A stretch of 64,000 nucleotides of DNA from positions 1-64,000 of the forward strand of contig JAHIFQ010000004.1 of assembly GCA_018900835.1 (NCBI GenBank). Reading direction: 5' to 3'. The stretch is from Patescibacteria group bacterium. GTDB taxonomy: Bacteria; Patescibacteriota; Minisyncoccia; Minisyncoccales; PEYH01. Position numbers and translations under genes: made by a program. Position 1 is the first letter of the stretch, and each line of letters opens with the position of its first letter. Positions 9,216 to 60,362 of this stretch are shown here, piece by piece. Under the pieces are notes generated by a model that worked only from the letters and a program-made list of their open reading frames with translations, was not told where the DNA came from and made no database searches.

Positions 9216-9593
9216 ATGAAAAAAGAGTTTATAGAAAAGCAAAGGGTGCGGTTAGAAGAAAACAAAAAAGCTCTCCAAAAGGAGCTAAGTCTTTTTGCTG
9301 AAAAAGATGAAAAAATAAAAGGCAACTGGAAGTCCTCTTTTCCTGATTTTGACAGTTCTGAAACCGGAGGAGGAAAACTGGAAATAGCCCAAGATGAAGT
9401 GGAGGAATATTTGAACCGTCTTCCAGTGGAGCATTCTATGGAAATCAAACTTCAAAACATAGATTTAGCGTTGGCAAAAGTAAAGAAAGGCACTTACGCA
9501 AAATGCAATAAATGCGGAAAAAGAATTTCCATGGACCGGCTTGAGGCCTGCCCAGAAGCGCAATTTTGCGTGGACTGCAAAGGCAAGGCGTAA
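9216..9593 (+). CDS. DksA/TraR-family C4 zinc-finger protein
   Basis: C-terminal CNKCGKRISMDRLEACPEAQFCVDC (CxxC-17-CxxC) after a coiled-coil. Confidence 0.7.
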   Translation: MKKEFIEKQRVRLEENKKALQKELSLFAEKDEKIKGNWKSSFPDFDSSETGGGKLEIAQDEVEEYLNRLPVEHSMEIKLQNIDLALAKVKKGTYAKCNKCGKRISMDRLEACPEAQFCVDCKGKA

Positions 9594-9609
9594 AAACAAA
9601 TATATCTCC

Positions 9610-9645
9610 CAAACACAAAAACCCAGCGATGGGTTTTTGTGTTTG
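9610..9645 (+). repeat. Palindromic hairpin element copy 1 (16-bp perfect stem CAAACACAAAAACCCA/TGGGTTTTTGTGTTTG, loop GCGA)
   Basis: Member of a 5-copy family with the core AAAACCC-N4-5-GGGTTTT (copies at 9610, 10448, 11305, 12124 and 13225). It acts as a terminator-like cassette boundary. Confidence 0.6.
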
Positions 9646-9671
9646 AAAAAAATAATATACAATGATTATAT

Positions 9672-10346
9672 ATGTCTACTAATATAAGAAATTATATATT
9701 CGTTGACGAATCAGGAGACCCAGGCAAGATTCATAAGATTGATTCCTCTGGGAATAAAATTTATACTGGCGCGAGTTTATTTTATATTCTCTCCGCAGTT
9801 TGTTTGAATTCAAGAGAATTATTTTTGCTAGAAAATAAGATTTTAGAAATTAAAAATAAACATGGATTTAGGAACGAAATAAAAAGCACCATTATTCCTT
9901 TAATTCTATACAAAGACCTCCTTAAAATGATTAACAAATTAGATATAAAAATATTTTATAGATTAATAGATAAAAGGAAATATAAGGGAACATTTGCCGT
10001 TAAGGGTGATAAAAGGCTACACAATGTCTTTGATGAATATAATCTTGCAAAATTAGTCTGTTTTGCTGTTAAGAAGTGTGATATGACCGGAGTAGAAGTA
10101 GTTATAGATAGAACCGACAGAAGGCTACTGGATGGTAACTTCGAGAATTTCAATGATTATCTCAAGGGCAAAATAAATACTAAAACAATCGAAAGGATAA
10201 AACATGTCACTCATGTTAATTCGGAATATGTAAATGCAATGCAGTTATCTGATTTAGTTAGTGGTGCAATAAAAGATAGTTTTACCAAAAAGAATCCATA
10301 TCTTAAAAAGATAATGGAAAAAAGGTTGTTGAAAAAGATATATTAG
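9672..10346 (+). CDS. DUF3800-family protein
   Basis: The N-terminal YIFVDESGDPG matches the DUF3800 y-i-DESG signature. The protein is about 220 aa. Confidence 0.55.
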   Translation: MSTNIRNYIFVDESGDPGKIHKIDSSGNKIYTGASLFYILSAVCLNSRELFLLENKILEIKNKHGFRNEIKSTIIPLILYKDLLKMINKLDIKIFYRLIDKRKYKGTFAVKGDKRLHNVFDEYNLAKLVCFAVKKCDMTGVEVVIDRTDRRLLDGNFENFNDYLKGKINTKTIERIKHVTHVNSEYVNAMQLSDLVSGAIKDSFTKKNPYLKKIMEKRLLKKIY

Positions 10347-10447
10347 GTTAAATAAAAAAAGAAGCGGGCGCCCAGACCTGGGACACGCTTCAATATGATA
10401 ATAGCAATCTCAAAATAATTGTCAAGTCCCCACGCAAAATACCACAC

Positions 10448-10468
10448 AAAAACCCCTGCTGGGTTTTT
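10448..10468 (+). repeat. Palindromic hairpin element copy 2 (AAAAACCC-CTGCT-GGGTTTTT)
   Basis: Same family. It sits 50 nt upstream of comM 5' fragment 1. Confidence 0.55.
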
Positions 10469-10490
10469 AAATTTGGAGAATTAAGATAAT

Positions 10491-10685
10491 ATGAAACAAG
10501 ATAAATCAATAAACAACAATATGTCTTCCAAAATATTCTCCGGAGCAGTTGTCGGTCTGGAAACCCAAATCATTGAGGTTGAATCAGATATTTCTTATGG
10601 ATTAAGGAGTTTTGAGATTGTGGGCTTGCCCGACAAAGCGGTAGAGGAGTCGACTGTCATCACAAAACATTCAAAGTGTTCTTGA
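10491..10685 (+). pseudogene. comM/yifB 5'-end fragment, copy 1 (displaced N-terminal 44 codons + unrelated tail)
   Basis: From the internal MSSKIFSGAVVGLETQIIEVESDISYGLRSFEIVGLPDKAVEES it is about 92% nt-identical to comM 13296-13427, then diverges. It carries an extra MKQDKSINNN leader. Confidence 0.75.
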
Positions 10686-10821
10686 AAACAAAACTCCTCC
10701 CGGTAGAAGAAATAATCGGGCATAGGGTTGAAGTAGAATTGATTGAAAAATAAACTTAACGCAACTTTGACAATATGCGTCTTTTTTGTCAAAATGGAAC
10801 AAATATTAATAAACTGTATAT

Positions 10822-11259
10822 ATGCCAAAAATACCCACTGGCAAATTAGCATCAATGCACATCTCTTATTCCTTTTTTCTTTATATGTTAGGGACGCAGA
10901 TTATTTTTCCCTCCTGGCCATATTTATTAAAGCTCATATTTACCATATTTATTATTCTATTATCAGTGTCTGGCTCTTTATGGTATTTCAAAAAGAGAGG
11001 ATATGTCATCGAAGAAAAACAAAAATTTCTTCGCTTGTCGGCAATTTGGTTTTTCTTGATAAATTTTAGTGTTCCAGTAATGTATACTATTTTGATAGTT
11101 TGGATAATGAGGACAGGCGCAAGTGCCACTGACCTTGCCAAAACATTTGCAATTTTCTTAGTGAGTTCAGGAATAACCACCCTTTTATTTTATTGGTTTA
11201 CTAAAAAACTCATGCCCAGAGTAGAAAGCGGTAAGAGCTTATTAAATTGGAAAAAATAA
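10822..11259 (+). CDS. 4-TM membrane protein, hypothetical (cargo between comM fragments)
   Basis: Four hydrophobic helices and no recognised motifs. Confidence 0.35.
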   Translation: MPKIPTGKLASMHISYSFFLYMLGTQIIFPSWPYLLKLIFTIFIILLSVSGSLWYFKKRGYVIEEKQKFLRLSAIWFFLINFSVPVMYTILIVWIMRTGASATDLAKTFAIFLVSSGITTLLFYWFTKKLMPRVESGKSLLNWKK

Positions 11260-11304
11260 AAAAAGGCATAGTGGAAAATAGCGCTAATTCCACTTTCTCT
11301 CTCT

Positions 11305-11328
11305 TGTCAACAACCAAAAACCCATCAC
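11305..11328 (+). repeat. Palindromic hairpin element copy 3 (CAAAAACCCA-TCAC-TGGGTTTTTG)
   Basis: Same family. Its 5' flank TTCTCTCTC..CAACAACC is shared with copy 5. Confidence 0.55.
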
Positions 11329-11383
11329 TGGGTTTTTGTGTTTAAGAAAGGCGGTTTCTCTTTTTTTTGTTATAGCGACTTTT

Positions 11384-11668
11384 TTAGCTAACAAATTCTA
11401 TTTTAATCCTTTTGTTAAATACTGAGGCAATTCTCTGAAGATTATCAGTAGTAAAATTCTGCCGCCCTGCTTCCATTCTAGCAATAACGCTTTGAGTTGT
11501 GCCAATCTTTTTAGCTAATCCCTGTTGTGATAAGTGTTTCTTCGCTCTCAATTGGACAATCTTATAAGCAACTTCAAGACGATGACATTCTTGTTTATAT
11601 CCCTTGTTGAAATTCTTATCTTTCATCTTGGCCCTAAAATGTTTTTCGTAATTAGTTAATTTAGTCAT
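11384..11668 (-). CDS. XRE-family HTH antitoxin (HigA-like)
   Basis: HTH motif LSQQGLAKKIGTTQSVIARMEAG. It lies downstream of, and overlaps by 8 nt, the RelE/HigB-like toxin gene. Confidence 0.6.
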   Translation of the reverse strand: MTKLTNYEKHFRAKMKDKNFNKGYKQECHRLEVAYKIVQLRAKKHLSQQGLAKKIGTTQSVIARMEAGRQNFTTDNLQRIASVFNKRIKIEFVS

Positions 11669-12029
11669 ATTTATTATTATTTATTAAAAAATCTCTATAA
11701 TTTTTTTCGGCTTTAATAATTTCTTTTTTTGGTGTTTTGCTTGTTTTCTTTAAAAACGCGTGTAAAAGAATAATTTTTTTGCTAACAAATGTAAAATAAA
11801 ATATTCTATGATGATTTTTGGAAAAACCAACTCTCAACTCTCTAATTTTCCCTTTAATGTGTTTTGAATACGGTTCATCCAAATATCCCTTCTTATCTTT
11901 TAATAATTCTAAATATGTAAAAACTTTTACCTGTTCTTTTTTAGACAGTTTATCAATGTATTCTTTCACGACTTCCTTTCCTTTAGAATCAATATAGTAA
12001 TAGATCCTATGGTCCCCTAAATATGTCAT
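11661..12029 (-). CDS. RelE/ParE-superfamily toxin, HigB/Gp49-like
   Basis: Blocks EPYSKHIKGKIRELR and RIFYF...IILLHAF.KK..KTP match the Gp49/HigB family. The toxin-first order matches HigBA. Confidence 0.6.
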   Translation of the reverse strand: MTYLGDHRIYYYIDSKGKEVVKEYIDKLSKKEQVKVFTYLELLKDKKGYLDEPYSKHIKGKIRELRVGFSKNHHRIFYFTFVSKKIILLHAFLKKTSKTPKKEIIKAEKNYRDFLINNNKYD

Positions 12030-12123
12030 ATTCTCTTTATAGCATATATGCTATATGCGTCAAGTATCTGCTGTGGATAACTCAACTAATATTTAAGGTA
12101 TAGTATTATCCTTATTATTTTCC

Positions 12124-12143
12124 CAAAACCCATTTCTGGGTTT
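12124..12143 (+). repeat. Palindromic hairpin element copy 4 (AAAACCCA-TTTC-TGGGTTTT)
   Basis: Same family. It sits 50 nt upstream of comM 5' fragment 2. Confidence 0.55.
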
Positions 12144-12167
12144 TTAAATTTGGAGAATTAAGATAAT

Positions 12168-12383
12168 ATGAAACAAGATAAATCAATAAACAACAATATG
12201 TCTTCCAAAATATTCTCCGGAGCTGTTGTCGGTTTGGAAACCCAAATCATTGAGGTTGAATCAGATATTTCTTATGGATTAAGGAGTTTTGAGATTGTGG
12301 GCTTGCCCGACAAAGCGGTAGAGGAATCAACTGTCGTCACAAAACATTCAAAGTGTTCTCTAAAACACAACTTCTTCCTATAG
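12168..12383 (+). pseudogene. comM/yifB 5'-end fragment, copy 2
   Basis: Same as copy 1, about 95% identical to it across roughly 320 bp including the 5' UTR. It diverges from comM after GCGGTAGAGGAATC. Confidence 0.75.
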
Positions 12384-12599
12384 CGGAAATAATCGGGCAT
12401 AAGGATGAAGCAAAATTGATTGAAAAATAGAATTGACACCACTTTTATAGGACTGAAGTAAAATTAATTGGAAAATAGACCTGACACCATTTTTCTATTT
12501 CATCATTTTCTCATCACCGTTTTTTTCATTTGATGACTGGCAGAAACAAACATGATATACTATAAAAAATTAGAGGAATAAAATTAATAAAATATATTT

Positions 12600-13100
12600 A
12601 TGAAAAATAAAACATTATTGATCGCGATAGTCGCCATTGTAGTATTGGCAATTTTAATTTTTTTAATACTTCTTATTAAGAATAAAACAGCTCCCGTAAT
12701 GTTCCCGACGGACGAGAAAGCTTGCGACGAAATACAGGGACAGAAATTGAAAGATTATTGTTATTTGGGTGCCGCTCAAGCCAAGCAAGACATGTCTATT
12801 TGTGAGATGATACAGGAGCAGTGGGTAAAAAATGACTGTTATTTAAATGTAGCTCAAGCCAAGCAAGATATCTCAATTTGTGAGAATATACAGGATCAAG
12901 AGAGGAAAGATGACTGTTATTTAAATGTAGCTCAAGTCAAGGAAGACATATCTCTTTGTGAGGGAATGCATGGACAGAACAAAAAAGATCTTTGTTATTT
13001 GCGCATTGCTCGAGCCAAGCAAGATATATCTATTTGTGAGATGATACAGGAGCAGAAGATAAAAGAAAATCTTTGTTATAGATACATAAATCCCCAATAA
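12600..13100 (+). CDS. Signal-anchored protein with four ~31-aa Cys-containing repeats (DCYLNVAQAKQDISICE..Q..K)
   Basis: An N-terminal hydrophobic anchor is followed by 4 tandem repeats, each with a conserved CYL...A.AKQD.S.CE pattern. Confidence 0.5.
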   Translation: MKNKTLLIAIVAIVVLAILIFLILLIKNKTAPVMFPTDEKACDEIQGQKLKDYCYLGAAQAKQDMSICEMIQEQWVKNDCYLNVAQAKQDISICENIQDQERKDDCYLNVAQVKEDISLCEGMHGQNKKDLCYLRIARAKQDISICEMIQEQKIKENLCYRYINPQ

Positions 13101-13224
13101 ATTCTGTTAAAATCCGCAATCGCAATTGGTATAAAAAAGTAGGCACACAGACATTGGACGCGCTTCAATATAATAGTGTTGAAAACGACATCAGGTCTAT
13201 TTTTCTCTCTCAAACAACAACCCT

Positions 13225-13245
13225 AAAACCCATCACTGGGTTTTT
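13225..13245 (+). repeat. Palindromic hairpin element copy 5 (AAAACCCA-TCAC-TGGGTTTT)
   Basis: Same family. It sits 50 nt upstream of intact comM. Confidence 0.55.
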
Positions 13246-13295
13246 GTGTTTGAAGAAAGATACATAATAGAATATTATGAATTATAATAAATATT

Positions 13296-14843
13296 ATGTC
13301 TTCCAAAATATTCTCCGGAGCTGTTGTCGGTCTGGAAACTCAAATTATTGAAGTGGAATCAGATATCTCCTATGGATTAAGGAGTTTTGAGATTGTGGGC
13401 TTGCCCGACAAAGCGGTAGAGGAATCAAAAGAAAGAATAAAATCAGCCATAAAGTCATGCGGTCTTCGTCCGCCTTTTTTAAAGCCAGAAAGAATCTTGA
13501 TTAACTTAGCGCCTGCTGATTTGAAAAAAGAAGGTTCGCTTTATGATTTACCCATTGCCATTGCTTATCTTGTAAAAAGCAAACAAATCAATGCAAATTG
13601 TGAAGGAAAGATGTTTGCCGGAGAATTATCATTAGATGGAACTCTGCGTCCCATAAAGGGAGCTCTTGCTTTTGCTCTTAAAGCCAACGAAGCAGATTTT
13701 CCTGAAATAATCCTGCCAATTGAAAATATGAAAGAAGCAACTCTGTGCCAAATCAATACCAATAAAAATAATTTAAGGATAATCGGAGTTGATTCTTTGC
13801 AAGCTGCGATAAATTATCTAGAAGGAAAAATAATCATTGAGCCAGCGATACTGGATATGAACGAGGTTGTTAAAAATAATGATTACAGGATTGGATTGGA
13901 TTGGGTAAAAGGACAAAACCATGCTAAAAGAGCTTTAATAATCGCTGCTGCCGGGGGCCACAATCTCTTACTTGTCGGGCCACCGGGCGGAGGAAAAAGC
14001 TTATTGGCAAAGTCCTTGCCTTCAATCTTGCCAGACTTATCAGCGGAAGAAATGCTTGAACTCACCAAAATCTACAGCATTTCCGGACTGCTTTCAAAAG
14101 AAGAACCGATTGTAACAAAGAGGCCTTTTCGCGCAGCCCACCACACTGCTTCCAAGGTTTCAATAATAGGGGGTGGCACTCCGATTCGGCCTGGCGAGAT
14201 TACTCTTGCCCACAGAGGAATTTTATTCTTAGACGAATTCCCGGAATTCAATAAAGATGTGCTGGAAGCGCTTAGGCAACCATTGGAAGACGGGACTATA
14301 ACTGTAATGCGGGCAGTTCAAAGAATCACATTTCCTTGCCATTTCAGTTTGATTGCTGCTGCCAATCCATGCCCTTGCGGACACTTAAACGACCCGAACA
14401 ATCCGTGCTCATGCACTCCCTCGCAAATAGCAAAATACAAACGCAAACTCTCGGGTCCGATAATTGACAGAATTGACATGGTGGTTGAATTGCCCCAAGT
14501 AGAGTTTGAAAAACTGACAGCTCCTGACAGCAATCAGGAAACAATTGAAGCAAGGGGAGAAATAGAAAAAGCAAGAAAGATTCAGAACGAGCGATTTCAA
14601 GAGAGTAAGATGATAACTAACAGCGAAATGGAGGTGCCGGAAATAAAAAAGCACTGCCAGATAAATTCATCATCAAACAATATCTTGAGGAGCTATGTTA
14701 ACTCTGGCAAACTCTCTGCCCGCGGTTATCATCGGGTATTAAAAATAGCCCGCACTATTGCGGACTTAGCAGGAACAGATGAGATTTTGCTTGAGAATCT
14801 ACACGAGGCATTAATGTATCGCCTCGCTGATATTTCTCACTAA
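13296..14843 (+). CDS. comM: Mg-chelatase-like AAA+ ATPase ComM/YifB
   Basis: 515 aa. Lon-like N-terminal domain, Walker A GPPGGGKS and the C-terminal ChlI-like region. Confidence 0.9.
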   Translation: MSSKIFSGAVVGLETQIIEVESDISYGLRSFEIVGLPDKAVEESKERIKSAIKSCGLRPPFLKPERILINLAPADLKKEGSLYDLPIAIAYLVKSKQINANCEGKMFAGELSLDGTLRPIKGALAFALKANEADFPEIILPIENMKEATLCQINTNKNNLRIIGVDSLQAAINYLEGKIIIEPAILDMNEVVKNNDYRIGLDWVKGQNHAKRALIIAAAGGHNLLLVGPPGGGKSLLAKSLPSILPDLSAEEMLELTKIYSISGLLSKEEPIVTKRPFRAAHHTASKVSIIGGGTPIRPGEITLAHRGILFLDEFPEFNKDVLEALRQPLEDGTITVMRAVQRITFPCHFSLIAAANPCPCGHLNDPNNPCSCTPSQIAKYKRKLSGPIIDRIDMVVELPQVEFEKLTAPDSNQETIEARGEIEKARKIQNERFQESKMITNSEMEVPEIKKHCQINSSSNNILRSYVNSGKLSARGYHRVLKIARTIADLAGTDEILLENLHEALMYRLADISH

Positions 14844-22258: not shown

Positions 22259-25200
22259 ATGAAACTTTCCTTTTTAGATGGATTATTAGGAAAAAAGACA
22301 GAATATGAGGCTGGTGCAGAACCGCAAGCAATGAACTTGCTTGATTTTATAGCTCCTCCAGCGATTACAATCGGGTCTGACTATTTCCAGATAGGCGAAA
22401 AATTCGCTAAATCATACTTTATTTTCTCTTACCCGAGATATTTGAGCACTGGGTGGTTGGCGCCAATTATAAACTTGGACATTCCATTGGACATTTCTAT
22501 TTTCTTTCATCCGATTGATACTGGGCTTATTCTGAAAAAATTAAGTAAAAAGGTTACTGAAGTTCAGTCGGAAATAATGGAAAAGGAAGAAAAGGGTTTA
22601 ATAAGGGACCCTATCCTTGAGACCGCTTACAAAGACATTGAGGTATTAAGAGACCGGCTCCAAACAGCGCAGGAAAGAATGTTCAGGGTTGGAATGTATC
22701 TGACCATATATGCTGATGACAAAAAGGAGTTGGAAAAAATAGAGGGCACTGTTCGCTCAATCCTTGAATCAAAATTGGTTTATGTAAAACCAGCCCTCTA
22801 CCAACAGGATAAGGCAATGATTTCAGCGTATCCCGCTGGTATAGACCGACTTCAAGTGCATACATCTATCAATACTAGTCCTCTCTCAACAATTTTCCCA
22901 TTTGTGTCTTTTGATTTGAGTTCAAACGAAGGAATCCTTTACGGGATAAACCAGCACAACAGCTCACTAGTGTTGTTTGACAGGTTTAGCTTGGAAAATG
23001 CAAACTCAGTCGTTTTCGGTAAGAGTGGCGGAGGCAAAAGCATTTTATCATCTGAACCAGTTCTGATAAGCGAGAACGGACAAACCAAGATTGAGAACAT
23101 CGGCAAAGTTGTAGAAAGAGCAATAGAAAAACACGGGTGCCATAAAATTGACGAGGAATTAGAGGGAGCAATAAATCCATATATCAAAGTTTGGAGTTTT
23201 GATAAAAATCTTAAAGGCAGTTGGTCAACGGTGACTGTTGCTGCAAGAAAAAAAGCTCCTGAAATATTTTATAAATTCAGAACCCGAAGCGGAAGAGAGG
23301 TGAGCACAACAGGAGACCACAATATGTTAATCCTTAAAAATGGACAAATAACCGCAGAAAAAAGCTCTGAAATTAATGAAGGAGAATTTATCCCGTTGTC
23401 CAGAAGGATTTCTGAAAACTCCTCTCCAGATAAATTCATAAACTTGCTTGAATTACTAAAAAATTCCCACTTGGTTTATGTTTTCAACGCTGAAAAAATC
23501 ATCAAAAAATATTATCATCAGATAAAAAATCTTGATAGTGGTTCCTCTTTAAAAAAATATCTCTATAAATACAAAGATGGTAGAAGGATTCCTATTAAAT
23601 ACTTCCTTGAAATTATTGATTCTTTAAAAATTTCAGAAGCCGAGCTTAATGATTTAAAAATTGTTTCCAAAAATGGAGATATTGCCAATGGCTTAAATAT
23701 AATCTTGCCTATTTCAAATAATCTGTTAAAAATAATCGGATTTATAGCATCAGAAGGAACAGTTGGCGAAAACTTTATAAATATCAGTAACCAAGACGAA
23801 GAATTCATCAAAGAGTGTATGGACTCTTTCAAGAATATTGGGGTTCCGTGCTATCAAGCAGACAAAGCTATTATTTGCGCAAGCCGTATTTTCACAGAAA
23901 TCATCAAGGCATTAGGCGGAAAACAGAAGTCCGGAGATAAGACGGTTTTGCCATTTATATTTAATGCTGAAAAAGAAAAAATTGCGCAATTCCTTTCCGC
24001 TTATTTTGAGGGAGACGGCGGGGTAGAACATGATAAAATATGCGCCACAACCAAATCAAAACAGCTATCTTCTGAAATTTCTTATCTGCTTTACTATTTT
24101 GGAATCATTGCCAGAATCCAAAAGAAAATTAAATGCGCCACCAATACAGAAGAAAAAAGAAAACAAACATATTGGCAAATTTCTGTATCAGGGAAGAATG
24201 ATTTAGAAAAGTTTGCCCAAGAAATTGGATTCATTTCTCACAGGAAAATAAACAAACTAAATAGCATTATTAAAGAAAATGGGAATACAAATGTTGATAT
24301 AATCCCGGGCTTAGCTCCGTTGTTTGAAGAAATCTACAACACCTGTCCTCCGCTCCTTATGGGCATGCAAACGGTCTCTGCTCTAAAGCGCGGGATATAT
24401 AATCCTTCACCAGATAATTTAAAAAACATAATAGAAAAAATAGAAAAACGGATTACTTATTTTAAAGATAGAGGAGAACAAATAAAAGTCCTGTCAGGAT
24501 TGCCAGAAATTCAGGAATTAATTGAATACGGAGAAAACATAGACAAAGAAACAGAAGACAATCTTGATTATAATTATAGTCCACAAGTCATAATGACCGA
24601 GCAAGCAAAGCAAACCGACCGACTTATTTGGCAGGAATACCAAGAAATTTTAAGAAATGGTATTCCAAAAATTGAAAATATTATCAAACGCCTAAAAAAT
24701 CTAGCAAACTCTGATTTATTTTTTGACGAAATCGTAAATATTGAAAAAATAGCCAACAAAGATGAACAATATGTTTATGATTTAACAGTGGACAACGAAG
24801 TATTTCTCTGCGGAAACGGTGGAATGTTTGTTCACAATTCGTACGCAATTAAGTTGGAGATTTTAAGGTCTTTGATGCTTGGAATTGAATCAATTATTAT
24901 TGACCCTGAAAACGAATATAGATTCCTTTCTGACGCAGTGGGCGGGAAGTTCTATAATATTTCTTTGGCATCAGAAAGCCATATAAACCCTTTTGACCTG
25001 CCAGAACCAGTTGATGATGAAGAGCCAAAAGATGTTTTGCGCTCCAACATTATCAACTTGGTTGGGCTTATGAGAATAATGCTTGGCGGGCTCACGCCTG
25101 AAGAGGACTCTGTTATTGACCAAGCTATTAACGAAACATATGCTGCCCGCGACATCACCGCAGACACAGACCCTGGTCTATGGAAAGAAAGGGTGCCATT

Positions 25201-25858
25201 GATGTCTGATTTAGAATCAGTGCTGGAAACAATGGAAGGCGCTGAATCGCTGGTTAAACGATTAAGAAAATTCACCAAAGGCGTTTACGCGGGATTCTTT
25301 AATTATCCAACAAATGTAGTAATGGATAATGCTTTGGTTGTTTTTGGCATTAAAAATCTTGAAACAGAATTAAGGCCATTGGCAATGTTTATTGTTATGC
25401 GCTACATTTGGAACGCCATTAAAGGTGATTTAAAAAAGAGAATCTTGGTGATTGACGAAGCGTGGTGGCTGATGCAAACAGAAGACAGCGCTTCTTTCCT
25501 TTATGGAATTGTAAAAAGAGGAAGAAAATATTGGCTTGGCACAACCACAATCACACAGGATGTGAACGATTTTATGAAATCAGACTATGGCCAGCCCATA
25601 ATCACAAATTCATCTTTGCAACTCTTGATGAAACAATCTCCAGCCACTATTCAGGTTGTAAAAGAGACCTTCAATCTTACTGACCAAGAAAAATACCTGC
25701 TTTTGGAAGCGCCTATTGGCGAAGGAATATTTTTTGCCGGAGAAAAACATGTTTCTATCAGGATTGTTGCTTCCTACACAGAGGACCAAATCATAACAAC
25801 CTCGCCTGAAGAAATGTCTAAAATAAAAAAGCTTAAAAAGATAAAAGAAAATGCCTGA
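22259..25858 (+). CDS. VirB4/TrbE/TraC-family conjugative ATPase containing a ~597-aa intein in the P-loop
   Basis: The exteins carry Walker A GKSGGGKS (aa 254-261), Walker B RILVIDEAWW and a VirB4 C-terminal region. The intein starts right after the P-loop and ends FVHN|S. Confidence 0.8.
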   Translation: MKLSFLDGLLGKKTEYEAGAEPQAMNLLDFIAPPAITIGSDYFQIGEKFAKSYFIFSYPRYLSTGWLAPIINLDIPLDISIFFHPIDTGLILKKLSKKVTEVQSEIMEKEEKGLIRDPILETAYKDIEVLRDRLQTAQERMFRVGMYLTIYADDKKELEKIEGTVRSILESKLVYVKPALYQQDKAMISAYPAGIDRLQVHTSINTSPLSTIFPFVSFDLSSNEGILYGINQHNSSLVLFDRFSLENANSVVFGKSGGGKSILSSEPVLISENGQTKIENIGKVVERAIEKHGCHKIDEELEGAINPYIKVWSFDKNLKGSWSTVTVAARKKAPEIFYKFRTRSGREVSTTGDHNMLILKNGQITAEKSSEINEGEFIPLSRRISENSSPDKFINLLELLKNSHLVYVFNAEKIIKKYYHQIKNLDSGSSLKKYLYKYKDGRRIPIKYFLEIIDSLKISEAELNDLKIVSKNGDIANGLNIILPISNNLLKIIGFIASEGTVGENFINISNQDEEFIKECMDSFKNIGVPCYQADKAIICASRIFTEIIKALGGKQKSGDKTVLPFIFNAEKEKIAQFLSAYFEGDGGVEHDKICATTKSKQLSSEISYLLYYFGIIARIQKKIKCATNTEEKRKQTYWQISVSGKNDLEKFAQEIGFISHRKINKLNSIIKENGNTNVDIIPGLAPLFEEIYNTCPPLLMGMQTVSALKRGIYNPSPDNLKNIIEKIEKRITYFKDRGEQIKVLSGLPEIQELIEYGENIDKETEDNLDYNYSPQVIMTEQAKQTDRLIWQEYQEILRNGIPKIENIIKRLKNLANSDLFFDEIVNIEKIANKDEQYVYDLTVDNEVFLCGNGGMFVHNSYAIKLEILRSLMLGIESIIIDPENEYRFLSDAVGGKFYNISLASESHINPFDLPEPVDDEEPKDVLRSNIINLVGLMRIMLGGLTPEEDSVIDQAINETYAARDITADTDPGLWKERVPLMSDLESVLETMEGAESLVKRLRKFTKGVYAGFFNYPTNVVMDNALVVFGIKNLETELRPLAMFIVMRYIWNAIKGDLKKRILVIDEAWWLMQTEDSASFLYGIVKRGRKYWLGTTTITQDVNDFMKSDYGQPIITNSSLQLLMKQSPATIQVVKETFNLTDQEKYLLLEAPIGEGIFFAGEKHVSIRIVASYTEDQIITTSPEEMSKIKKLKKIKENA
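23048..24838 (+). mobile_element. Intein with LAGLIDADG (dodecapeptide) homing-endonuclease domain inside VirB4
   Basis: Block A lies after GKSGGGKSIL (S-SEPVLISENG). The LAGLIDADG blocks are KIIGFIASEGTVGE and IAQFLSAYFEGDGGVE. The C-terminal splice junction is VHN followed by the +1 Ser. The rejoined extein reads GKSGGGKSIL-SYAIKLEIL. Confidence 0.7.
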
Positions 25859-32127: not shown

Positions 32128-33507
32128 TTGAGATTAACCCTCCCAAACATTATGAACAAAGAAGAGCTCTGGCAAGCTATCCTGTCCCAAATCCAGTTCA
32201 ATATATCCCAGGCGAATTTTAGCACCTGGTTTAAGAACACATACATTCTTTCAAACGATAACGGGACAATAATAATAGCTGTGCCAAACAATTTTTCAAA
32301 AGAATGGTTGGAAAGAAAATATAACAAGCTTATTTTAAATGGGTTAGAGGAATTAAATGAAAGAGTTAAGGTAATAGAATATAGGGTAGTGAATGTCCCT
32401 GCCCCCCAGATGCCAAAAAAATCTGTGAAAGCAGAAATAGCTGATATAAACCAGTTAGAATTGGAGGAACTGGCGCTTGATAAATATACTAATCTTAATC
32501 CTAGATACACTTTTGATAATTTTGTAGTCGGCCCATTTAATGAATTAGCGCATGCCGCTGGGTGGGCAGTGAGCCAAAAGCCGGGATTGGTATATAATCC
32601 ATTTTTTGTTTATGGCGGAGTAGGACTTGGTAAGACCCATCTGCTTCAAGCAATAGGGAATAAGGTCTATGGACAGTCCGCCAAAAAGAAAATTAAATAT
32701 GTTTCTTCTGAAAGATTCATATCCGGCATTATTAATTCTATAAGAAATCAAACTATTGATGAATTTAAAAACACTTACCGTGATTTTGATATGCTGATAA
32801 TTGATGATATCCAATTTCTGGCAGGCAAAGAAAAGACCCAAGAAGAATTCTTTCATCTTTTCAATATCCTATATGAATCCAATAAACAAATCATCATCTC
32901 ATCCGACAGGCCACCTAAAGCGATTTCAGCGCTGGAAGAGCGATTGCGTTCGAGATTTGAAGGCGGGATGATAACAGATATAGGAACTCCTGATTTTGAA
33001 AGCAGAATCGCGATTTTAAAACAGAAAATTCAAGAAAAAAAGGCAGGTATAAGCGGAGAGGTTTTAGAGTATATCGCCTCAAACATACAAAAGAATGTAA
33101 GGGAACTTGAGGGCGCCTTGAAATCCTTAGCTGCATGGAAACAGCTCCACAACCAAGACATTGACCTTGATTTGGCAAAAAAGGTTTTGAAAAGAACTAT
33201 AAACCCGCAACCCAAAGGACTTAATTTTCAGAAAATAATCAACACAGTGGCGGAGTTCTATAATATGAAAGATAAGGACTTGTATGTTAGCTCAAGAAAA
33301 AAAGAAATCGTTAGACCACGACAGATAGCTATGTATTTTTTGAGGGAAGAATTGAAGAGTTCTTTTCCGTTTATTGGTAAAAAATTCGGGGGCAAGGACC
33401 ACACCACAGCCATTTATGCCTGTGAAAAAATTTCAAAAGAAATAATTGAAAATGAACAATTCGCAGAAGAAATAATTCTTATCAAGGAAAAGATTTACTC
33501 TTATTAG
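32128..33507 (+). CDS. dnaA: Chromosomal replication initiator DnaA
   Basis: AAA+ Walker A GGVGLGKTHL, the sensor motifs and the C-terminal DNA-binding domain (IGKKFGGKDHTT). Confidence 0.95.
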   Translation: MRLTLPNIMNKEELWQAILSQIQFNISQANFSTWFKNTYILSNDNGTIIIAVPNNFSKEWLERKYNKLILNGLEELNERVKVIEYRVVNVPAPQMPKKSVKAEIADINQLELEELALDKYTNLNPRYTFDNFVVGPFNELAHAAGWAVSQKPGLVYNPFFVYGGVGLGKTHLLQAIGNKVYGQSAKKKIKYVSSERFISGIINSIRNQTIDEFKNTYRDFDMLIIDDIQFLAGKEKTQEEFFHLFNILYESNKQIIISSDRPPKAISALEERLRSRFEGGMITDIGTPDFESRIAILKQKIQEKKAGISGEVLEYIASNIQKNVRELEGALKSLAAWKQLHNQDIDLDLAKKVLKRTINPQPKGLNFQKIINTVAEFYNMKDKDLYVSSRKKEIVRPRQIAMYFLREELKSSFPFIGKKFGGKDHTTAIYACEKISKEIIENEQFAEEIILIKEKIYSY

Positions 33508-33768
33508 GAGAATTAACTGATGTGAATAATCTGTTAAGAAACACTGAAAAACCATGGGATAAGCGATTGGATAACAAGTGGACAAAACAAGACCTTTAAA
33601 AACCTAAAAAATTATCCAAATCTAATTAAGGGGTTATCAACTGATATATCAACTAAGTTATCAACTTTTTCTCCCCAAAACTAACCCTTGCGCAACTTAA
33701 AGAAACAATTAAAATAGAGTCGTAAACTAGACGCATAGTAGTAATAATTAATGTATTAATTAAATAAT
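33508..33768 (+). promoter_or_regulatory. Candidate oriC (dnaA-dnaN intergenic): cluster of DnaA-box-like 9-mers + AT-rich unwinding region
   Basis: ATTGGATAA (8/9 to TGTGGATAA), TTATCCAAA (8/9), three tandem (G/A)TTATCAACT repeats at about 33630-33670, and AGTGGACAA. The 3' 80 nt are more than 80% A+T. Confidence 0.5.
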
Positions 33769-34902
33769 ATGAAGATAATAATACTTAAAGAAAAATTGGC
33801 TAAAGGATTAAGTATGGTTGAGAAAATAACTGGAAGAAACTTTACTCTTCCGATTTTAAATAATGTTTTGATTTCTGCTGAAGATAACTCATTGAAATTA
33901 TCAACCACTGACCTTGAATTAGGGATTAGCTATTGGGGACTTGCGAAGGTAGAAGAAAAAGGAGAAATCACTATCCCAGTGAAAACCCTTTCTAGTTTTG
34001 TCTCTCTTATTGGAGAAGAGAAAGTGACAATAGAGAGCAAGGAAAAAACACTTTATTTAAAGGGAGAAAATTATAAGACACAGATAAAGGGGCTTGAAGC
34101 AAAGGATTTTCCAATTATCCCGGAAGTTGTTTCAGATAAATGGATTGAATTTGACGCAACTACATTTTGTAAAGGGATAATGCTTGTAATGGATTTTTGC
34201 GCACTCACTCAAGTAAGGCCTGAACTCTCTGGCTTATATTTTGTTTTTCAAAAAAATTCGGCTAAAATCGTGGCTACCGACAGTTTTCGTTTAGCGGAAA
34301 AAAGCATTGCTTTAGATGGGGCTACTCAAGGAATAGACGGTCCACAGTCATTTATTCTTCCAAGAAATGCTGCCAGGGAATTAGTCAATATTTTTTCAGA
34401 GCACAATGGAAAAATCAAGTTTTATTTATCTCCGAGTCAAATTATGGTTGAAAGCTATGTTGACGAAACCAAAAACCCACAAGCGCGCTTAGTTTCCCGT
34501 TTGATTGAAGGTGAATACCCTGATTATGAAGCAGTGATTCCAAAAGAGTTTAAAACACGGCTCACTCTTTCCAGGGAAGAATTCTCAAACCAGATTAAAA
34601 TTGCCAGTTTATTCAGCGGAAGAACGAATGAAGTAAAATTGGAAATAAGCCCTAAAAAAGGAAATGTTTTGATATCTTCGCAAAGCGTTGATTTGGGGGA
34701 AACAGAATCCAAAATGGCGATAGACGCAAGCGGAGATGATGTGGAGATAAGCTTTAATTACAAGTTTTTGTCTGAAGGATTGAATCAAATAAAATCAGAA
34801 AAAATCGTTCTTGAGCTTAATGGTCAAGACGGACCTGGTGTTTTAAAATCCAGTGACGATTCAACTTATATTTATGTAATAATGCCGATTAAGGCATCTT
34901 GA
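33769..34902 (+). CDS. dnaN: DNA polymerase III beta sliding clamp
   Basis: 377 aa with a three-domain clamp layout and the N-terminal MKIIILKEKL...NFTLPILNNVLI. Confidence 0.9.
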   Translation: MKIIILKEKLAKGLSMVEKITGRNFTLPILNNVLISAEDNSLKLSTTDLELGISYWGLAKVEEKGEITIPVKTLSSFVSLIGEEKVTIESKEKTLYLKGENYKTQIKGLEAKDFPIIPEVVSDKWIEFDATTFCKGIMLVMDFCALTQVRPELSGLYFVFQKNSAKIVATDSFRLAEKSIALDGATQGIDGPQSFILPRNAARELVNIFSEHNGKIKFYLSPSQIMVESYVDETKNPQARLVSRLIEGEYPDYEAVIPKEFKTRLTLSREEFSNQIKIASLFSGRTNEVKLEISPKKGNVLISSQSVDLGETESKMAIDASGDDVEISFNYKFLSEGLNQIKSEKIVLELNGQDGPGVLKSSDDSTYIYVIMPIKAS

Positions 34903-38597: not shown

Positions 38598-39092
38598 TCA
38601 AGCTTTTTTCGGAAATCTTTTAGATTCTAGGAGATATACGCAACAAATAGCCAGACCCAAGGCATCGGCAGCGTCGTCTGATTTGGGCACCTCATCCAAG
38701 TCCAAAAGTTTTTTAATCATTTTTTGCATTTGCATTTTTTGAGCTCTGCCATAACCGACAATATTCATTTTAACCTCCAAAGGAGTGAATTCGTAGATAG
38801 GTATTTTTTTTCTTTCTCCTGCCAACAATATAACTCCACGGGCCTGACTTACAGGAATGGCGGTCTTGGCATTTTTAAAGAAAAACAATCTTTCTACAGA
38901 CAAAGCATCTGGAGAAAAATCCTTTATCAAACCATTAACTTGGTTAAAAATTTGATTCAGTCGATTCTCTGGGGAATCATCTGGGGATGTCTTAATGCAT
39001 CCGCATGCAACAAAATCTATTCCTCTTTGAGATTTTCTAACAACCCCGTAGCCAGTCCTTGCCGTTCCGGGGTCTATTCCTAAAATAATCAT
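38598..39092 (-). CDS. ruvC: Holliday junction resolvase RuvC
   Basis: MIILGIDPGTARTGYGVV and the catalytic D/E residues. Confidence 0.9.
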   Translation of the reverse strand: MIILGIDPGTARTGYGVVRKSQRGIDFVACGCIKTSPDDSPENRLNQIFNQVNGLIKDFSPDALSVERLFFFKNAKTAIPVSQARGVILLAGERKKIPIYEFTPLEVKMNIVGYGRAQKMQMQKMIKKLLDLDEVPKSDDAADALGLAICCVYLLESKRFPKKA

Positions 39093-39101
39093 GAGTAGAA
39101 A

Positions 39102-39821
39102 TTATAATTTTATATTTGAGTAAATATCTTGCACATCATCATTATCATCAAGCGCCTCGAAAAGCCTTCCTATTGATGCCTTTTCTTTTTCATCAACATC
39201 TATCTCTTCTTTTGCTATCCACCCTAAATTGACTGATTCTATATTAAATTTCTTTTCTTCAAGAGCCCTTTTTACGGTTTCTAAATCTTCTGGCTTGGTG
39301 CAAACCTCAATAAGGTCATTTATTTTTTTGATATCCTCGGCGCCTGCTTCAATGATTGCCATTTCCAAATCATTTTCTTCCATTGCTTCAGGGATTTCTA
39401 AAATAATAATTCCCATATTTTCAAACTGCCATTTTACCGAACCTTCGTTTGCTAACTTAGCATTATTGTGAGATAAAAGTTGCTTTATATCAGTAAGAGT
39501 TCTGTTCTTGTTATTAGTAATTCCAGTGATTATAAGAGCGCTTTTAGCTGGCCCATAGGCCTCAAAACAAAATTCTTCCAATATCTCGTCCTGTAATTCG
39601 CCAATGCCTTTTTTGATTGCCCTTTCAATATTCTCGCTTGGCATATTAGCTTTTTTCGCTTGTTCAACAGCAATCCTTAGGCTTGGGTTCATTTGAGGGT
39701 CTCCTCCTATTTTTGCGGCAACTGAAATAACCCGGGATAATTTTGAAAAAATCTGCGCCCGTTTCCGGTCTTCTGCTTCTTTGCCTCTTTTAATTGTAGC
39801 CCAATGGCTGTGCCCACTCAT
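39102..39821 (-). CDS. yebC: YebC/PmpR-family transcriptional regulator
   Basis: MSGHSHWATIKRGKEAEDRKRAQIFSKL is the invariant N-terminus of the family. Confidence 0.9.
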   Translation of the reverse strand: MSGHSHWATIKRGKEAEDRKRAQIFSKLSRVISVAAKIGGDPQMNPSLRIAVEQAKKANMPSENIERAIKKGIGELQDEILEEFCFEAYGPAKSALIITGITNNKNRTLTDIKQLLSHNNAKLANEGSVKWQFENMGIIILEIPEAMEENDLEMAIIEAGAEDIKKINDLIEVCTKPEDLETVKRALEEKKFNIESVNLGWIAKEEIDVDEKEKASIGRLFEALDDNDDVQDIYSNIKL

Positions 39822-39870
39822 AAATATTAATTACTTATTACTAATCACTCGTCTGCCTCGGGCGGATTAA

Positions 39871-40494: not shown

Positions 40495-40562
40495 CGGGTT
40501 TTCCTTGGCTAAAACAAAATTGGTTGCGCTGAAGCAAGCAGTTAGAAAAAGAAATTCAAAAA

Positions 40563-50470: not shown

Positions 50471-50812
50471 TTGAAAAGAGACGAGGAATGGGGTAATATT
50501 AAAGCAGATATGGAAAAAATACCCCAATTTTTGCAGAAATATTTTTGGGATGTGGAATTTTTAACCCTGGACATAAAAAAGCACTCACAATTTGTTATTG
50601 AGAGGATTTTAGAATATGGAGACAAAAAATCAATAAAATGGATGGAAGATAATTTTCCTTCAGAAGAAATTAAAAATACCCTTTCTATTTCCAAAAACCT
50701 TTCGCAAAAATCAGCCAATTTTTGGCAGCTTATTTTTGATTTAGATAAGAATAAAATTTTATGCTTGAACAAATCATTTCAAAAAAAACACAAAGCAATC
50801 TGGAGATATTAA
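50471..50812 (+). CDS. Hypothetical protein overlapping the AbiEii-like gene start; candidate cognate antitoxin
   Basis: 113 aa with no HTH recognised. The assignment rests on the 52-nt overlap with the downstream NTase gene. Confidence 0.25.
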   Translation: MKRDEEWGNIKADMEKIPQFLQKYFWDVEFLTLDIKKHSQFVIERILEYGDKKSIKWMEDNFPSEEIKNTLSISKNLSQKSANFWQLIFDLDKNKILCLNKSFQKKHKAIWRY

Positions 50813-60290: not shown

Positions 60291-60362
60291 GTCCCTGTGG
60301 TTCAATGGATAAAACACCTCCCTCCGGAGGAGGAAATGGCTGTTCGAATCAGCCCAGGGACA
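60291..60362 (+). tRNA. tRNA-Arg (anticodon CCG)
   Basis: Acceptor GTCCCTG/CAGGGAC, anticodon arm CCTCC-CTCCGGA-GGAGG, T-arm GGCTG-TTCGAAT-CAGCC, discriminator A. Confidence 0.8.

Follow-up and report, generated by a model that had tools for sequence, protein, structure and literature searches.

How does a gene come to have its own beginning present three times, with only the last copy running on into a complete reading frame? This is the question raised by comM in the window, the whole 64,000-nucleotide (64 kb) stretch of Patescibacteria DNA analysed here. The first-pass annotation took the two upstream copies, or decoys, for resident 5′ ends displaced by successive insertions at a single point. 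The answer that we favour with moderate confidence, jointly with the recombination scheme set out below, is that the region from 9.6 to 13.4 kb is a cassette array filling the dksA-comM spacer, and that the comM start would be present three times because accessory-gene cassettes precede it, each flanked by a portable copy of the comM promoter and codons 1–44. The features run as follows.

9216–9593, plus strand: dksA/traR-type zinc-finger gene (Pfam zf-dskA_traR), conserved left anchor of the array
9605–9650, no strand: hairpin H0 after dksA, long and perfect, 16-bp stem, terminator-like (fold energy -24.1 kcal/mol, z = -7.6)
9672–10346, plus strand: cargo 0, DUF3800 protein (Pfam DUF3800, E = 2e-12)
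10447–10520, plus strand: upstream part of module 1, short hairpin H1 (10447–10469) and type-B leader
10521–10652, plus strand: comM 5′ copy 1 (codons 1–44, by alignment)
10653–10753, plus strand: tail 1, in the comM frame TVITKHSKCS and stop
10822–11259, plus strand: cargo 1, predicted membrane protein of 145 aa, no Pfam match
11294–11343, no strand: cassette right-end motif (TTTCTCTCTC..AACAAC), hairpin H2 and GTGTTT (start of a type-A leader)
11384–12029, minus strand: cargo 2, HigA-like HTH antitoxin (11384–11668; Pfam HTH_3, 3.5e-13) and Gp49/HigB-like toxin (11661–12029; Pfam Gp49, 1.5e-24)
12124–12197, plus strand: upstream part of module 2, hairpin H3 (12124–12146) and type-B leader
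12198–12329, plus strand: comM 5′ copy 2 (codons 1–44), orthologous to L003 8003–8134
12330–12430, plus strand: tail 2, in the comM frame TVVTKHSKCSLKHNFFL and stop
12424–12495, no strand: motif AAAATAGAnnTGACACCAnTTTT, two copies in tandem
12600–13100, plus strand: cargo 3, protein of 166 aa, membrane anchor at the N-terminus, four repeats of 26 aa, no Pfam match
13183–13295, plus strand: cassette right-end motif, hairpin H4 (13225–13244) and the native-type (A) leader of comM
13296–14843, plus strand: intact comM, 515 aa, with Lon-like N-terminal domain, AAA+ Mg-chelatase-type ATPase and C-terminal domain (Pfam ChlI, Mg_chelatase, Mg_chelatase_C)

A repeat search of the window returns one family of three copies (10447–10746, 12124–12423 and 13222–13521), within which alignment places comM nt 1–132 at 10521–10652, 12198–12329 and 13296–13427. 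The two decoys and the intact gene are thus there as first described, at 93–97% identity: copies 1 and 2 differ at 4 of the 132 positions (97.0% identity), copies 1 and 3 at 9 (93.2%) and copies 2 and 3 at 7 (94.7%). As also described, both decoys diverge from comM into the same tail of about 100 nt, identical at 86 of 100 positions; they leave comM after GAGGA(G/A)TC(G/A) and continue as ACTGTC, and a 21-nt core of the tail has exactly two occurrences in the 64 kb, where 0.02 would be expected. Upstream of copies 1 and 2, 70 of 75 nt are identical, hairpin included. The different untranslated region assigned to intact comM is confined to the roughly 50 nt between hairpin and ATG, as the intact gene likewise has a hairpin upstream. 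The window holds four occurrences of AAACCCN6GGGTTT (expected 0), none of them outside 9.6–13.3 kb, and a variant at 10447–10469. The segment 11294–11343 is 82% identical to 13202–13251 in the same repeat search and forms a synteny breakpoint, homology to L003/L082 beginning directly after it, at 11344/11350. Motif AAAATAGAnnTGACACCAnTTTT also lies 3′ of tails in L003 and L073 and, inverted, 5′ of hairpins in L002, L003 and L073.

Divergence among the copies had been put down to older events or different donor lineages, of which only the first holds, and for part of the array. All variable sites among the three copies are synonymous (10/10) and all residues identical (44/44), a pattern with a chance of about 5e-7 under random point changes. 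The three are closest to each other (93–98%, versus at most 90% to any copy elsewhere), and in L003 the decoy carries amino-acid variants of its own intact comM, which indicates that the comM copies within a genome are evolving in concert and do not stem from different donors. The HigBA cassette with copy 2 has orthologues in L003 and L082 at about 82–83% (window versus L003 81.8%), that is, as diverged as comM (78–83%), and on this measure that part of the array is therefore old; the toxin-antitoxin module of cargo 2 has orthologues in L003, L080 and L082.

The layout is not private to this genome and is common to many related Patescibacteria. In the data, all from metagenome assemblies, about 30 Patescibacteria loci have this junction and tail in the interval from dksA to comM, with cargo that varies by locus (toxin-antitoxin pairs, DUF3800, NYN, membrane proteins, SufSE). 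A dksA/traR-type gene also stands before the array or before comM in L002, L003, L004, L073, L080, L081, L089 and L107. The order PNPase, large protein, dksA, array, comM, M23 peptidase recurs in L002 (four copies), L003 (three copies) and L073 with the same junction and different cargo, and in L004, a close relative, the site is empty, so that the comparison of relatives called for by the first-pass annotation yields zero, three and four copies; comM orthologues in L002–L004 are 85–90% identical. A metagenome scan with the tail pattern gave 24 loci. Twenty hold a comM fragment, mostly the first 44 codons directly 5′ of the tail, with intact comM 1–6 kb downstream where the contig reaches; three have dksA and/or M23 peptidase with no comM match (L087, L100) or only intact comM on a contig beginning at the tail (L095), and one (L096) is unrelated. 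The comM-tail junction is unchanged in hosts with ComM only 55–60% identical to that of the window, and in L090/L091 the tail also follows a second GAAGAATCG within comM, at codon ~250.

The leaders bear on displacement. Type B stands before copies 1 and 2 and type A before intact comM, and type A equals the dksA-comM spacer of the empty L004 site, i.e. it is native. H0 is homologous to the intergenic hairpin of that same site, and the type-A-like leader after it here drives the DUF3800 gene, an arrangement of hairpin, leader and cargo also found in L002 and L100. Intact comM is preceded by type A in the window and L002 and by type B in L003/L080; among decoys, the first in L003 carries type A and one in L002 type B. 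As the intact gene in the window has the native-type leader and the decoys type B, the decoys are not simply displaced resident ends. The recurrent hotspot at codon 44/45 is borne out nevertheless, and the pattern that displacement as originally modelled predicts, with the native leader on the dksA-proximal copy and the imported leader on the intact gene, is seen in L003 and the L081/L089 lineage. The proposal that comM is kept intact by a supplied 5′ end also stands, promoter and 5′ end both being duplicated. The peptide leader MKQDKSINNN is not conserved in relatives (a stop codon in L003, no ATG in L002).

The breakpoints lie within the repeats. L081 and L095 share 1.75 kb at 100%, from the tail through cargo and leader to about nt 100 of comM, while their comM bodies are 71–80% identical; one cassette, identical in hosts whose comM differs by 20–29%, has evidently been transferred recently between diverged hosts. 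The left edge of this block lies at most 10 nt from the comM-tail junction, which speaks against the model proposed below. Between L081 and L088, identity is complete from dksA as far as comM nt 110, with divergence beyond, and homology between the window and L003/L082 begins or ends directly after hairpins and also about 50 nt into the tail. Breakpoints as aligned thus fall inside the comM copy and at the locus-specific hairpin, not at one core. No recombinase-like cargo ORF was found in the 15 arrays compared, which have no cargo ORF in common. For the source genome the search covered the 64 kb window: a Pfam scan of 40 window ORFs found RuvA, RuvB, RuvC and ComM and no integrase or transposase, and tblastn with the L090/91 recombinases gave no match in the window or other loci. 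A recombinase encoded elsewhere in that genome may still act in trans. The sole array with recombinases is an untidy 11.8-kb tail-bearing element, L090/91, which carries a large serine recombinase, a resolvase and restriction-modification cargo; its insertion is not clean, 31 codons of comM being absent, and the recombinase gene does not need the tail to be complete.

We propose a model that most reasonably fits these observations, and to which the moderate confidence stated above applies. The lack of a recombinase, breakpoints within repeats, the likeness of copies within a genome and a fully identical cassette in diverged hosts together suggest an old integrase-free cassette platform, maintained and reshuffled by homologous (Campbell-type and replacement) recombination. 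The unit would be a portable module of about 300 nt, made of a copy of the native dksA-terminator hairpin, the comM leader/promoter and comM codons 1–44, fused to the conserved tail at the fixed point where GA(A/G)TC(A/G) meets ACTGTC. Cargo (toxin-antitoxin pairs, DUF3800, membrane or secreted proteins) would follow the tail up to the next hairpin. As each module repeats the chromosomal segment before comM, a circle or incoming fragment carrying module and cargo could recombine there by ordinary homologous recombination. A single crossover within the comM copy would leave a decoy with the native leader and comM with the imported one, as in L003; a crossover in the hairpin would leave a decoy with the imported leader and comM with the native one, as in the window. 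Cassettes would be exchanged between strains through double crossovers in the repeated flanks and lost through recombination between direct repeats, and gene conversion would keep decoys similar to the host comM, which would remain uninterrupted throughout. We infer the circular or transformed intermediates, and likewise that the first comM-tail junction arose in a single ancient event or through a site-specific enzyme.

Serial site-specific integration we consider doubtful as the general explanation. Here, a tyrosine or serine recombinase acting in trans would insert integrase-less, CIME-like islets in succession, crossing over at comM codon 43-44 within a GAATCR core. A replacement promoter and 5′ end would come with each element, and the decoys would be attL and hybrid att sites. 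The constancy of the junction in about 45 instances counts in its favour. The unchanged junction in the 55–60% identical hosts and the second site at codon ~250, which has TTGAAGAATC in common, fit a sequence-specific enzyme better than homology alone. A host-like comM copy joined to a tail more conserved than host sequence, the dksA-proximal decoy with native leader in L003, L081 and L089, the recombinases of the 11.8-kb element, and precedents in dusA islands (PMC4482086) and SXT at prfC (PMC2791158) point the same way. However, no integrase was found in the other arrays or the 40 window ORFs scanned, and the one element with recombinases has the untidy structure noted above. Furthermore, the leader arrangement in the window is opposite to prediction, right-hand breakpoints lie at least 20–30 nt upstream of the proposed core, and the repeats span 130–300 nt rather than a short core.

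The first-pass annotation regarded the copies as decaying fragments, which is true of some decoys and not of the tail. In the -1 frame after the A-run, pN/pS is 0.19 across 27 tails; in nine tails from outside the metagenome pattern scan (seven from protein searches or extra copies, and the window's two) it is 0.25, with pS 0.70, against 0.72 for the comM frame and 1.8 for the third. These values, near 0.2, indicate purifying selection on the -1 frame of the tail; tail entropy is highest at that frame's third codon positions, and comM-frame H-to-L and S-to-L changes are synonymous in it. The frame reads DCHHKTFKVFLKTKLLPVEEIIGHRVEVELIEK and stop in tail 1 (10652–10750) and NCRHKTFKVFSKTQLLPIAEIIGHKDEAKLIEK and stop in tail 2 (12329–12427), and is without a start codon; expression of a small protein by frameshift from decoy plus tail is plausible. 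As the peptide is conserved, the modules probably have a function of their own, and leftover copies with so conserved a short coding tail are probably not junk. Taken further, the decoys would be no footprints but a bona fide small gene heading each cassette, with a product of ~75-80 aa: comM codons 1–44 and ~5 more, a -1 ribosomal slip on A_AAA_C, then the peptide TFKVFLKTQLLP... Selection for this protein would account for the repeated comM start. We hold this only tentatively as the explanation, though it can coexist with either recombination model. The L103 allele, with A5 in place of A4, directly encodes the predicted fusion in one frame, L105 has A7, the canonical slippery heptamer A_AAA_AAA, and an SD-like GAGGA/GAAGA can be read 13–15 nt 5′ of the A-run. 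ORFs of exactly 54 aa, of the form comM1-44 plus TVxxKHSxxx, are kept in about 40 protein clusters. On the other hand, A_AAA_C is a weak slippery site, downstream structure is not conserved (z about 0), and the in-frame allele is 1 of ~60, on a 1.2-kb contig with a possible homopolymer sequencing error. Some decoys are clearly decaying, through 70 bp inserted in L002, truncation at codon ~32 or loss of the comM part (L084, L087 and L097); gene conversion accounts for the conservation of the comM part, and homology and domain searches detected no homologue or domain for the peptide.

Far less probable is an integron-like or hairpin-directed capture, in which the hairpin, attC-like or IS200/IS605-like, would serve as the site of recombination and the comM fragment and tail would be mere passengers. 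The hairpin is limited to the array, with five copies in 3.7 kb and none elsewhere in the 64 kb, and two synteny breakpoints adjoin hairpins. Its stem, however, is plain (8-9 bp), descends from the native dksA terminator and has no attC features; neither an IntI-type nor a Y1-transposase gene turned up among the window ORFs scanned, and distant arrays keep junction and tail with the hairpin absent or different. That a metagenome assembler concatenated strain variants of one locus is scarcely credible, for although repeats in such data are prone to mis-joining, the copies are separated by unique cargo, the array is also present in the public assembly GCA_018898995.1 (where both short ORFs are annotated as genes), decoy 1 is recorded on two contigs, and homologous arrays come from unrelated studies and assemblers.

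The proposed platform resembles several known systems and coincides with none. Campbell-type insertion-duplication, or island replacement via conserved flanks after transformation, is normally a laboratory or sporadic event. The array shares with it direct duplication of the homology segment around the insert, a target left intact if promoter and 5′ end are included, crossover points that vary within the repeat, and repeats subject to gene conversion and deletion; unlike it, the array is seemingly institutionalised, with a lineage-wide module, fixed internal junction and selected tail. CIMEs, as in the ICESt1/CIME system of Streptococcus thermophilus, are short integrase-less islets bounded by att-like repeats that accrete in tandem at one chromosomal site and depend on the integrase that a related ICE there provides; their repeats are short att cores. 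Our array likewise piles up short elements without recombination genes in tandem, but no cognate ICE or integrase was found in the arrays compared or the 64 kb window. Like integron arrays, it holds tandem, mostly single-gene and diverse cassettes with a repeated structured element between them beside a fixed platform; unlike them, it has no IntI, attC-type sites or attI, and its repeated element copies the start of the gene next to it. The dusA islands and prophages, with their own tyrosine integrase (DAI) and 21-bp semiconserved repeats at the flanks (Farrugia et al. 2015, PMC4482086), also target the 5′ end of a housekeeping gene, supply a new one that keeps the gene functional and leave a remnant upstream; here, there is no integrase, the repeats are 130–300 nt and include the promoter, and several tiny cassettes lie in tandem with a conserved coding tail after each remnant. 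SXT/R391 ICEs at the prfC 5′ end, which are conjugative, ~100 kb in size and equipped with Int, Xis and transfer genes, similarly use a gene 5′ end as site, show tandem occupancy and recombine with each other (PMC2791158; PMC2786100), but the present cassettes are 0.7–4 kb and without mobility genes. Finally, the AbaR islands of Acinetobacter also target the comM locus with accessory or selfish cargo, interrupting and inactivating the gene and thereby curbing transformation (PMC11441513; survey PMC4774983), whereas in the arrays described here comM is preserved in all but two, L073 and L090/91.

We propose a model for the region ahead of comM to which, on balance, we lean: the array would be an integrase-free cassette platform built on a repeated module of hairpin, leader, comM codons 1-44 and a tail of about 100 nt. 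The module would provide homology arms through which cassettes could be inserted (Campbell-type), exchanged or lost, a terminator and promoter to insulate comM and drive the cassette, and probably also a small ORF of its own. A single crossover within the comM copy of a circle made of module and cargo would produce the arrangement seen in L003, the homologous locus of a close relative, and a crossover in the hairpin would produce that of the window. Here 3.7 kb of accessory DNA fills the space between a dksA-type gene (9216-9593) and comM (13296-14843), which is intact. In the following layout type A is the native-type comM leader, type B is the other leader and a decoy is a copy of comM codons 1-44 fused to a tail.

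Features of the array in the window
9605-9650: long terminator hairpin of the dksA-type gene
9672-10346: DUF3800 gene behind a type-A-like leader
10447-10469: hairpin of module 1, then a type-B leader
10521-10652: comM codons 1-44 of module 1
10653-10753: tail of module 1
10822-11259: 145-aa membrane protein
11294-11343: right-end motif and hairpin
11384-12029, minus strand: predicted HigA/HigB-type toxin-antitoxin pair
12124-12146: hairpin of module 2, then a type-B leader
12198-12329: comM codons 1-44 of module 2
12330-12430: tail of module 2
12600-13100: 166-aa repeat protein
13225-13244: hairpin, preceded by a right-end motif and followed by a type-A leader and the intact comM

On domain content the minus-strand cargo pair qualifies as a predicted HigB/HigA-type toxin-antitoxin system, with a Gp49/HigB-family toxin gene (Pfam Gp49, 1.5e-24) overlapping by 8 nt the antitoxin gene downstream (HTH_3, 3.5e-13). 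The 166-aa cargo protein consists in part of four tandem repeats of 78 nt (26 aa) with the motif CYL.(V/A)AQAKQDISICE and has no family match. A further motif, AAAATAGAnnTGACACCAnTTTT, stands 3′ of tails and, as a degenerate inverted copy, ahead of the hairpin that closes a cassette (12424-12495 and 13183-13207, as well as three related loci, L002, L003 and L073); it could represent a promoter/operator or a small element's inverted termini.

As the first-pass annotation had observed in proposing a serial-insertion hotspot, the comM start is present three times in tandem. The copies are 93-97% identical, and copies 1 and 2 leave comM at GAGGA(G/A)TC(G/A), directly followed by ACTGTC, for a common tail in which 86 of 100 nt are identical. 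All ten variable sites among the three copies are synonymous (by-chance P about 5e-7). The repeat takes in the native dksA-terminator hairpin, the leader and comM up to nt 132, and the insert is flanked by direct copies of the target segment. Within the 64 kb the hairpin, AAACCCN6GGGTTT, is confined to the array and the tail core occurs just twice; the annotation was right to place the hairpin before copies 1 and 2, although it also precedes the intact copy. Its suggestion of different donor lineages is ruled out because the window copies cluster together, and the leader peptide that it singled out, MKQDKSINNN, is not conserved among relatives.

The window matches GCA_018898995.1, a Patescibacteria MAG, and a ComM scan of one genome per species returned three close relatives with identical synteny. 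Their states agree with what serial insertion would leave in sister genomes: L004 is an empty site, ordered dksA, hairpin, type-A leader and comM, and there are three comM starts in L003 and four in L002. In the more distant L073 a decoy and tail are present and comM lacks codons 45 to about 318. Most tails came from searching metagenomes for a degenerate 25-nt pattern of the tail (19 bases fixed); this yielded 24 loci, one of them (L096) unrelated. A comM fragment is present in 20 of the 24, mostly as the first 44 codons directly 5′ of the tail, and where the contig is long enough intact comM follows 1-6 kb downstream. Two further loci, L087 and L100, have dksA and/or an M23 peptidase, with intact comM not found, and the L095 contig begins at the tail. 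The odd left contexts of L084, L087 and L097 look like decoys that have lost their comM part, and not like new sites. Among tail-bearing loci ComM can be as little as 55-60% identical to that of the window, and protein searches recovered about 40 clusters (90% identity) of ORFs of exactly 54 aa, of the form comM1-44 + TVxxKHSxxx. Cargo is diverse and of kinds typical of accessory DNA: toxin-antitoxin-type pairs (RelE/Phd, HicAB, VapBC, HigBA, SocA-like), DUF3800, NYN and membrane proteins and, in L107, SufS-SufE with a two-component system. All sequences are metagenome assemblies; the tail pattern had no match in viral contigs, and the literature searched contains no account of comM-start cassette arrays in CPR/Patescibacteria.

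The proposed model draws support from several comparisons between loci. Over 1.75 kb that take in tail, cargo, leader and comM as far as nt ~100, L081 and L095 are 100% identical, while their comM bodies are just 71-80% identical. Between L081 and L088 identity is complete from dksA up to nt 110 of comM, beyond which the two diverge; these limits place breakpoints inside the comM copy, 20-30 nt ahead of the junction core. Homology between the window and L003/L082 has its limits directly after hairpins and also some 50 nt inside the tail. Leaders have likewise changed places, as type A stands on the intact comM in the window and L002 and on the first decoy in L003, with type B reversed. In L003, L081 and L089 the native dksA-coupled copy is now the decoy and an imported leader and 5′ end stand on the intact comM; as at dusA genomic islands and SXT, the old 5′ end is left upstream, a new one is supplied and gene function is kept. 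Crossovers are scattered within the homology, giving the mosaic repeats and gene conversion of Campbell-type exchange. Copies of comM from one genome are closer to each other than to copies elsewhere, and the L003 decoy carries amino-acid variants of its own comM, which indicates gene conversion. The HigBA cassette and module 2 are orthologous in L003 and L082 at comM-like divergence, so the array is partly old and vertically inherited. From these alignments we conclude that homologous recombination between repeated modules probably dominates present-day dynamics. RuvA, RuvB, RuvC and ComM are all encoded in the window, and dnaA and dnaN lie about 19 kb from the array; the regions concerned are 32128-34902 and 38598-41618.

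A classical site-specific integrase acting in trans is possible, though we consider it doubtful. It would account well for the comM-tail junction (GAATCR, then ACTGTC), which is invariant across very diverged hosts, for the second comM site joined to the tail, which shares TTGAAGAATC with the codon-44 junction, and for the left edge of the L081/L095 identical block, within 10 nt of the junction. This constant junction and second site exist alongside right-hand breakpoints that fall either at hairpins or, in comM, at nt ~100-110, and such breakpoints within repeats speak against an integrase, as does the recombinase-free state of every array but the pair L090/L091. Neither the window array nor any of 15 others has a recombinase ORF, a domain scan of 40 ORFs of the 64-kb window, the part of this genome covered, detected no integrase or transposase, and the element-encoded tyrosine or serine integrase that accompanies the att site of dusA islands and SXT has no counterpart in the arrays. 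L090/L091 carry an 11.8-kb element inside comM, with a tail at its left end after a second GAAGAATCG at comM codon ~250, cargo of SocA-like, ClpP-like and restriction-modification genes, and a resolvase and a 540-aa large serine recombinase at its right end, where comM codons ~251-281 are missing; the loss of these 31 codons shows that this is not a clean integration. As a general enzyme the large serine recombinase was rejected, being confined to that untidily inserted element, and the L091 recombinases gave no match as tblastn queries against the window and the other loci. We conclude that the first comM-tail junction arose either in a single ancient event or through an enzyme that is not encoded in cis.

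In the intact comM of L081 (4397-4405) and L094 (3555-3563), GAAGAAAGC, with the Ser codon AGC, replaces GAAGAATCR at codons 42-44, and these alleles are without the GAATCR motif that every junction has; this allele could be a resistant target. By eye, GARGAR at the end of the comM copy does not covary consistently with YTCYTC in the tail. A GC-rich, repeat-like insertion of ~70 bp (..GCATTGCTACGCCAGCCCGCATTGCTATGCAAAAGCGTTGCAGGCGGGCAAAGCGTTGCAGGCGGGGCTGCC) splits a decoy at codon 37 in L002 (8137-8210; L092 5348-5441) and resembles a miniature insertion element. In L087 (1735-1830) a tRNA-like 3′ fragment (GGGGGTTCGAGTCCTGCCAGGGGAGTCA) comes straight after a truncated tail, which suggests that remnants of different integration systems may pile up at one spot.

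A functional small gene within the module, compatible with either recombination model, is a tentative reading that we would not put above the trans-acting integrase. Its case begins with 27 distinct tails, in which the changes fall mainly on every third base (in the -1 frame relative to comM, entropy at codon positions 1, 2 and 3 is 7.2, 4.1 and 12.0). Pairwise pN/pS 3′ of the A-run (ACAAAAC), which pools non-independent comparisons, has the values 0.19 (-1 frame), 0.67 (comM frame) and 1.64 (third frame); nine tails from outside the pattern scan, namely the window's two and seven found by protein searches or as extra copies, gave 0.25, 0.72 and 1.82 (pS 0.70). The -1-frame peptide, ...KTFKVFLKT(Q/K)LLP(I/V)xE(V/I)..., runs 21-35 codons from junction to stop, and its C-terminal sub-families are common to cassettes with different cargo. 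This frame lacks a start codon, and in every context it is closed 2-21 codons upstream. As in known programmed frameshift genes, a conserved -1-frame ORF overlaps the end of a 0-frame ORF. Most alleles have only A_AAA_C as slippery sequence, and L105/L106 have A7, the canonical A_AAA_AAA heptamer. In L103, with A5 for A4, comM-start, TIMIK and TFKAFLKTQLLPITEVIKHRERELVKV are encoded in one frame, exactly the product expected of a -1 slip of tRNA-Lys on A_AAA_C, and in L104 an unrelated ORF start of 19 codons precedes the peptide. The A-run has an SD-like GAGGA/GAAGA 13-15 nt upstream, in the same bases as comM codons E42-E43. A downstream stimulatory fold is neither significant nor conserved in the tails, and some decoys are clearly decaying; expression of a tail small protein by frameshift is thus a serious hypothesis and not an established one. 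The first-pass view of the decoys as decaying fragments holds for those and sits poorly with the -1-frame selection on the tail.

Other origins of the tail were rejected. Exhaustive HMMER against 1.84 billion representatives found the peptide in just three small ORFs and in no long protein, which speaks against the tail as the 3′ end of a longer protein, whether of an element gene spanning attP or of a primary target gene; a tail word search was empty, though short ORFs probably escape it. Neither hhalign nor Pfam gave a match for the tail as diverged comM from codon 45 on, and an RNA family or structured RNA had no Rfam match or significant fold. A minus-strand ORF is contradicted by Leu-codon variants (CTA) that are TAG stops on that strand, and an internal TTG start overlapping the TGA stop by alleles with CTA, TTA or TCT, which mark it as a Leu codon.

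At its most specific the small-gene reading becomes unlikely: initiation at the copied comM start, 49 codons and a -1 slip on A_AAA_C into the TFKVFLKTQLLP... peptide would give from every cassette a ~77-aa ComM mimic that might tune or poison ComM assembly, shielding cassettes from deletion by transformation, or act in cassette recombination. Such a product would carry the first strands of ComM's Lon-like hexamerisation domain and, with the hairpin, would turn the array into a cassette-capture system that maintains itself without an integrase and is specific to Patescibacteria.

The window has other features of note, among them a parallel case at ruvA (50471-53867). There the first 128 nt (with 2 nt upstream) are present twice with 100% identity (51373-51500 and 53296-53423), and a 33-nt leader motif likewise (50471 and 53263, 88%). 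Ahead of the ruvA decoy stands a DUF6922 + AbiEii toxin-antitoxin pair, with its stop overlapping the ATG of the decoy; behind the decoy come a GC-rich stretch of about 190 nt containing a tRNA/tmRNA-like T-arm (GGGGGTTTGATTCC) and an ORF for a 348-aa membrane protein. A comM-type tail is absent from this duplication. In the region 60291-63008 the 3′ 43 nt of tRNA-Arg(CCG) (60323-60365) recur beyond bipA at 62966-63008 (88%), which could reflect an old att-type duplication or the remains of a tRNA. A 1199-aa TraG/VirB4-like ATPase (22259-25858), with an intein bearing a LAGLIDADG endonuclease, sits within a PrgI/TraC-like/T4SS-pilin gene cluster (20.7-30.3 kb).

Patescibacteria have tiny genomes with few recognisable mobile elements, and their gain and exchange of accessory genes is poorly understood. 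The comM locus points to a simple route, in which a portable promoter and the first 44 codons supply the homology to insert, swap or delete cassettes with the gene unharmed. It also offers a ready marker of strain-level accessory variation in these lineages, and the -1-frame tail is a concrete, testable candidate for a frameshift-dependent small protein from the ComM N-terminus. ComM drives branch migration in natural transformation (PMC6158740), and in other bacteria its gene is usually destroyed by mobile elements (PMC4774983, PMC11441513).

An integron is a poor comparison, since dksA and comM flank the array in place of intI, attI and Pc, an integrase is absent, and the hairpins come from the dksA terminator and have perfect stems of 8-9 bp and loops of 4-5 nt, unlike the imperfect 57-141-nt palindromes with extrahelical bases of attC. 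In CIMEs, integrase-less islets accrete in tandem. Inserted elements also replace the 5′ end of the target gene at dusA islands (PMC4482086) and in SXT/R391 at prfC (PMC2791158). In contrast to these systems, the comM array lacks any integrase, its repeats are long and contain a promoter, its cassettes are small and numerous, its breakpoints are spread within the repeats, and it has a conserved, selected tail.
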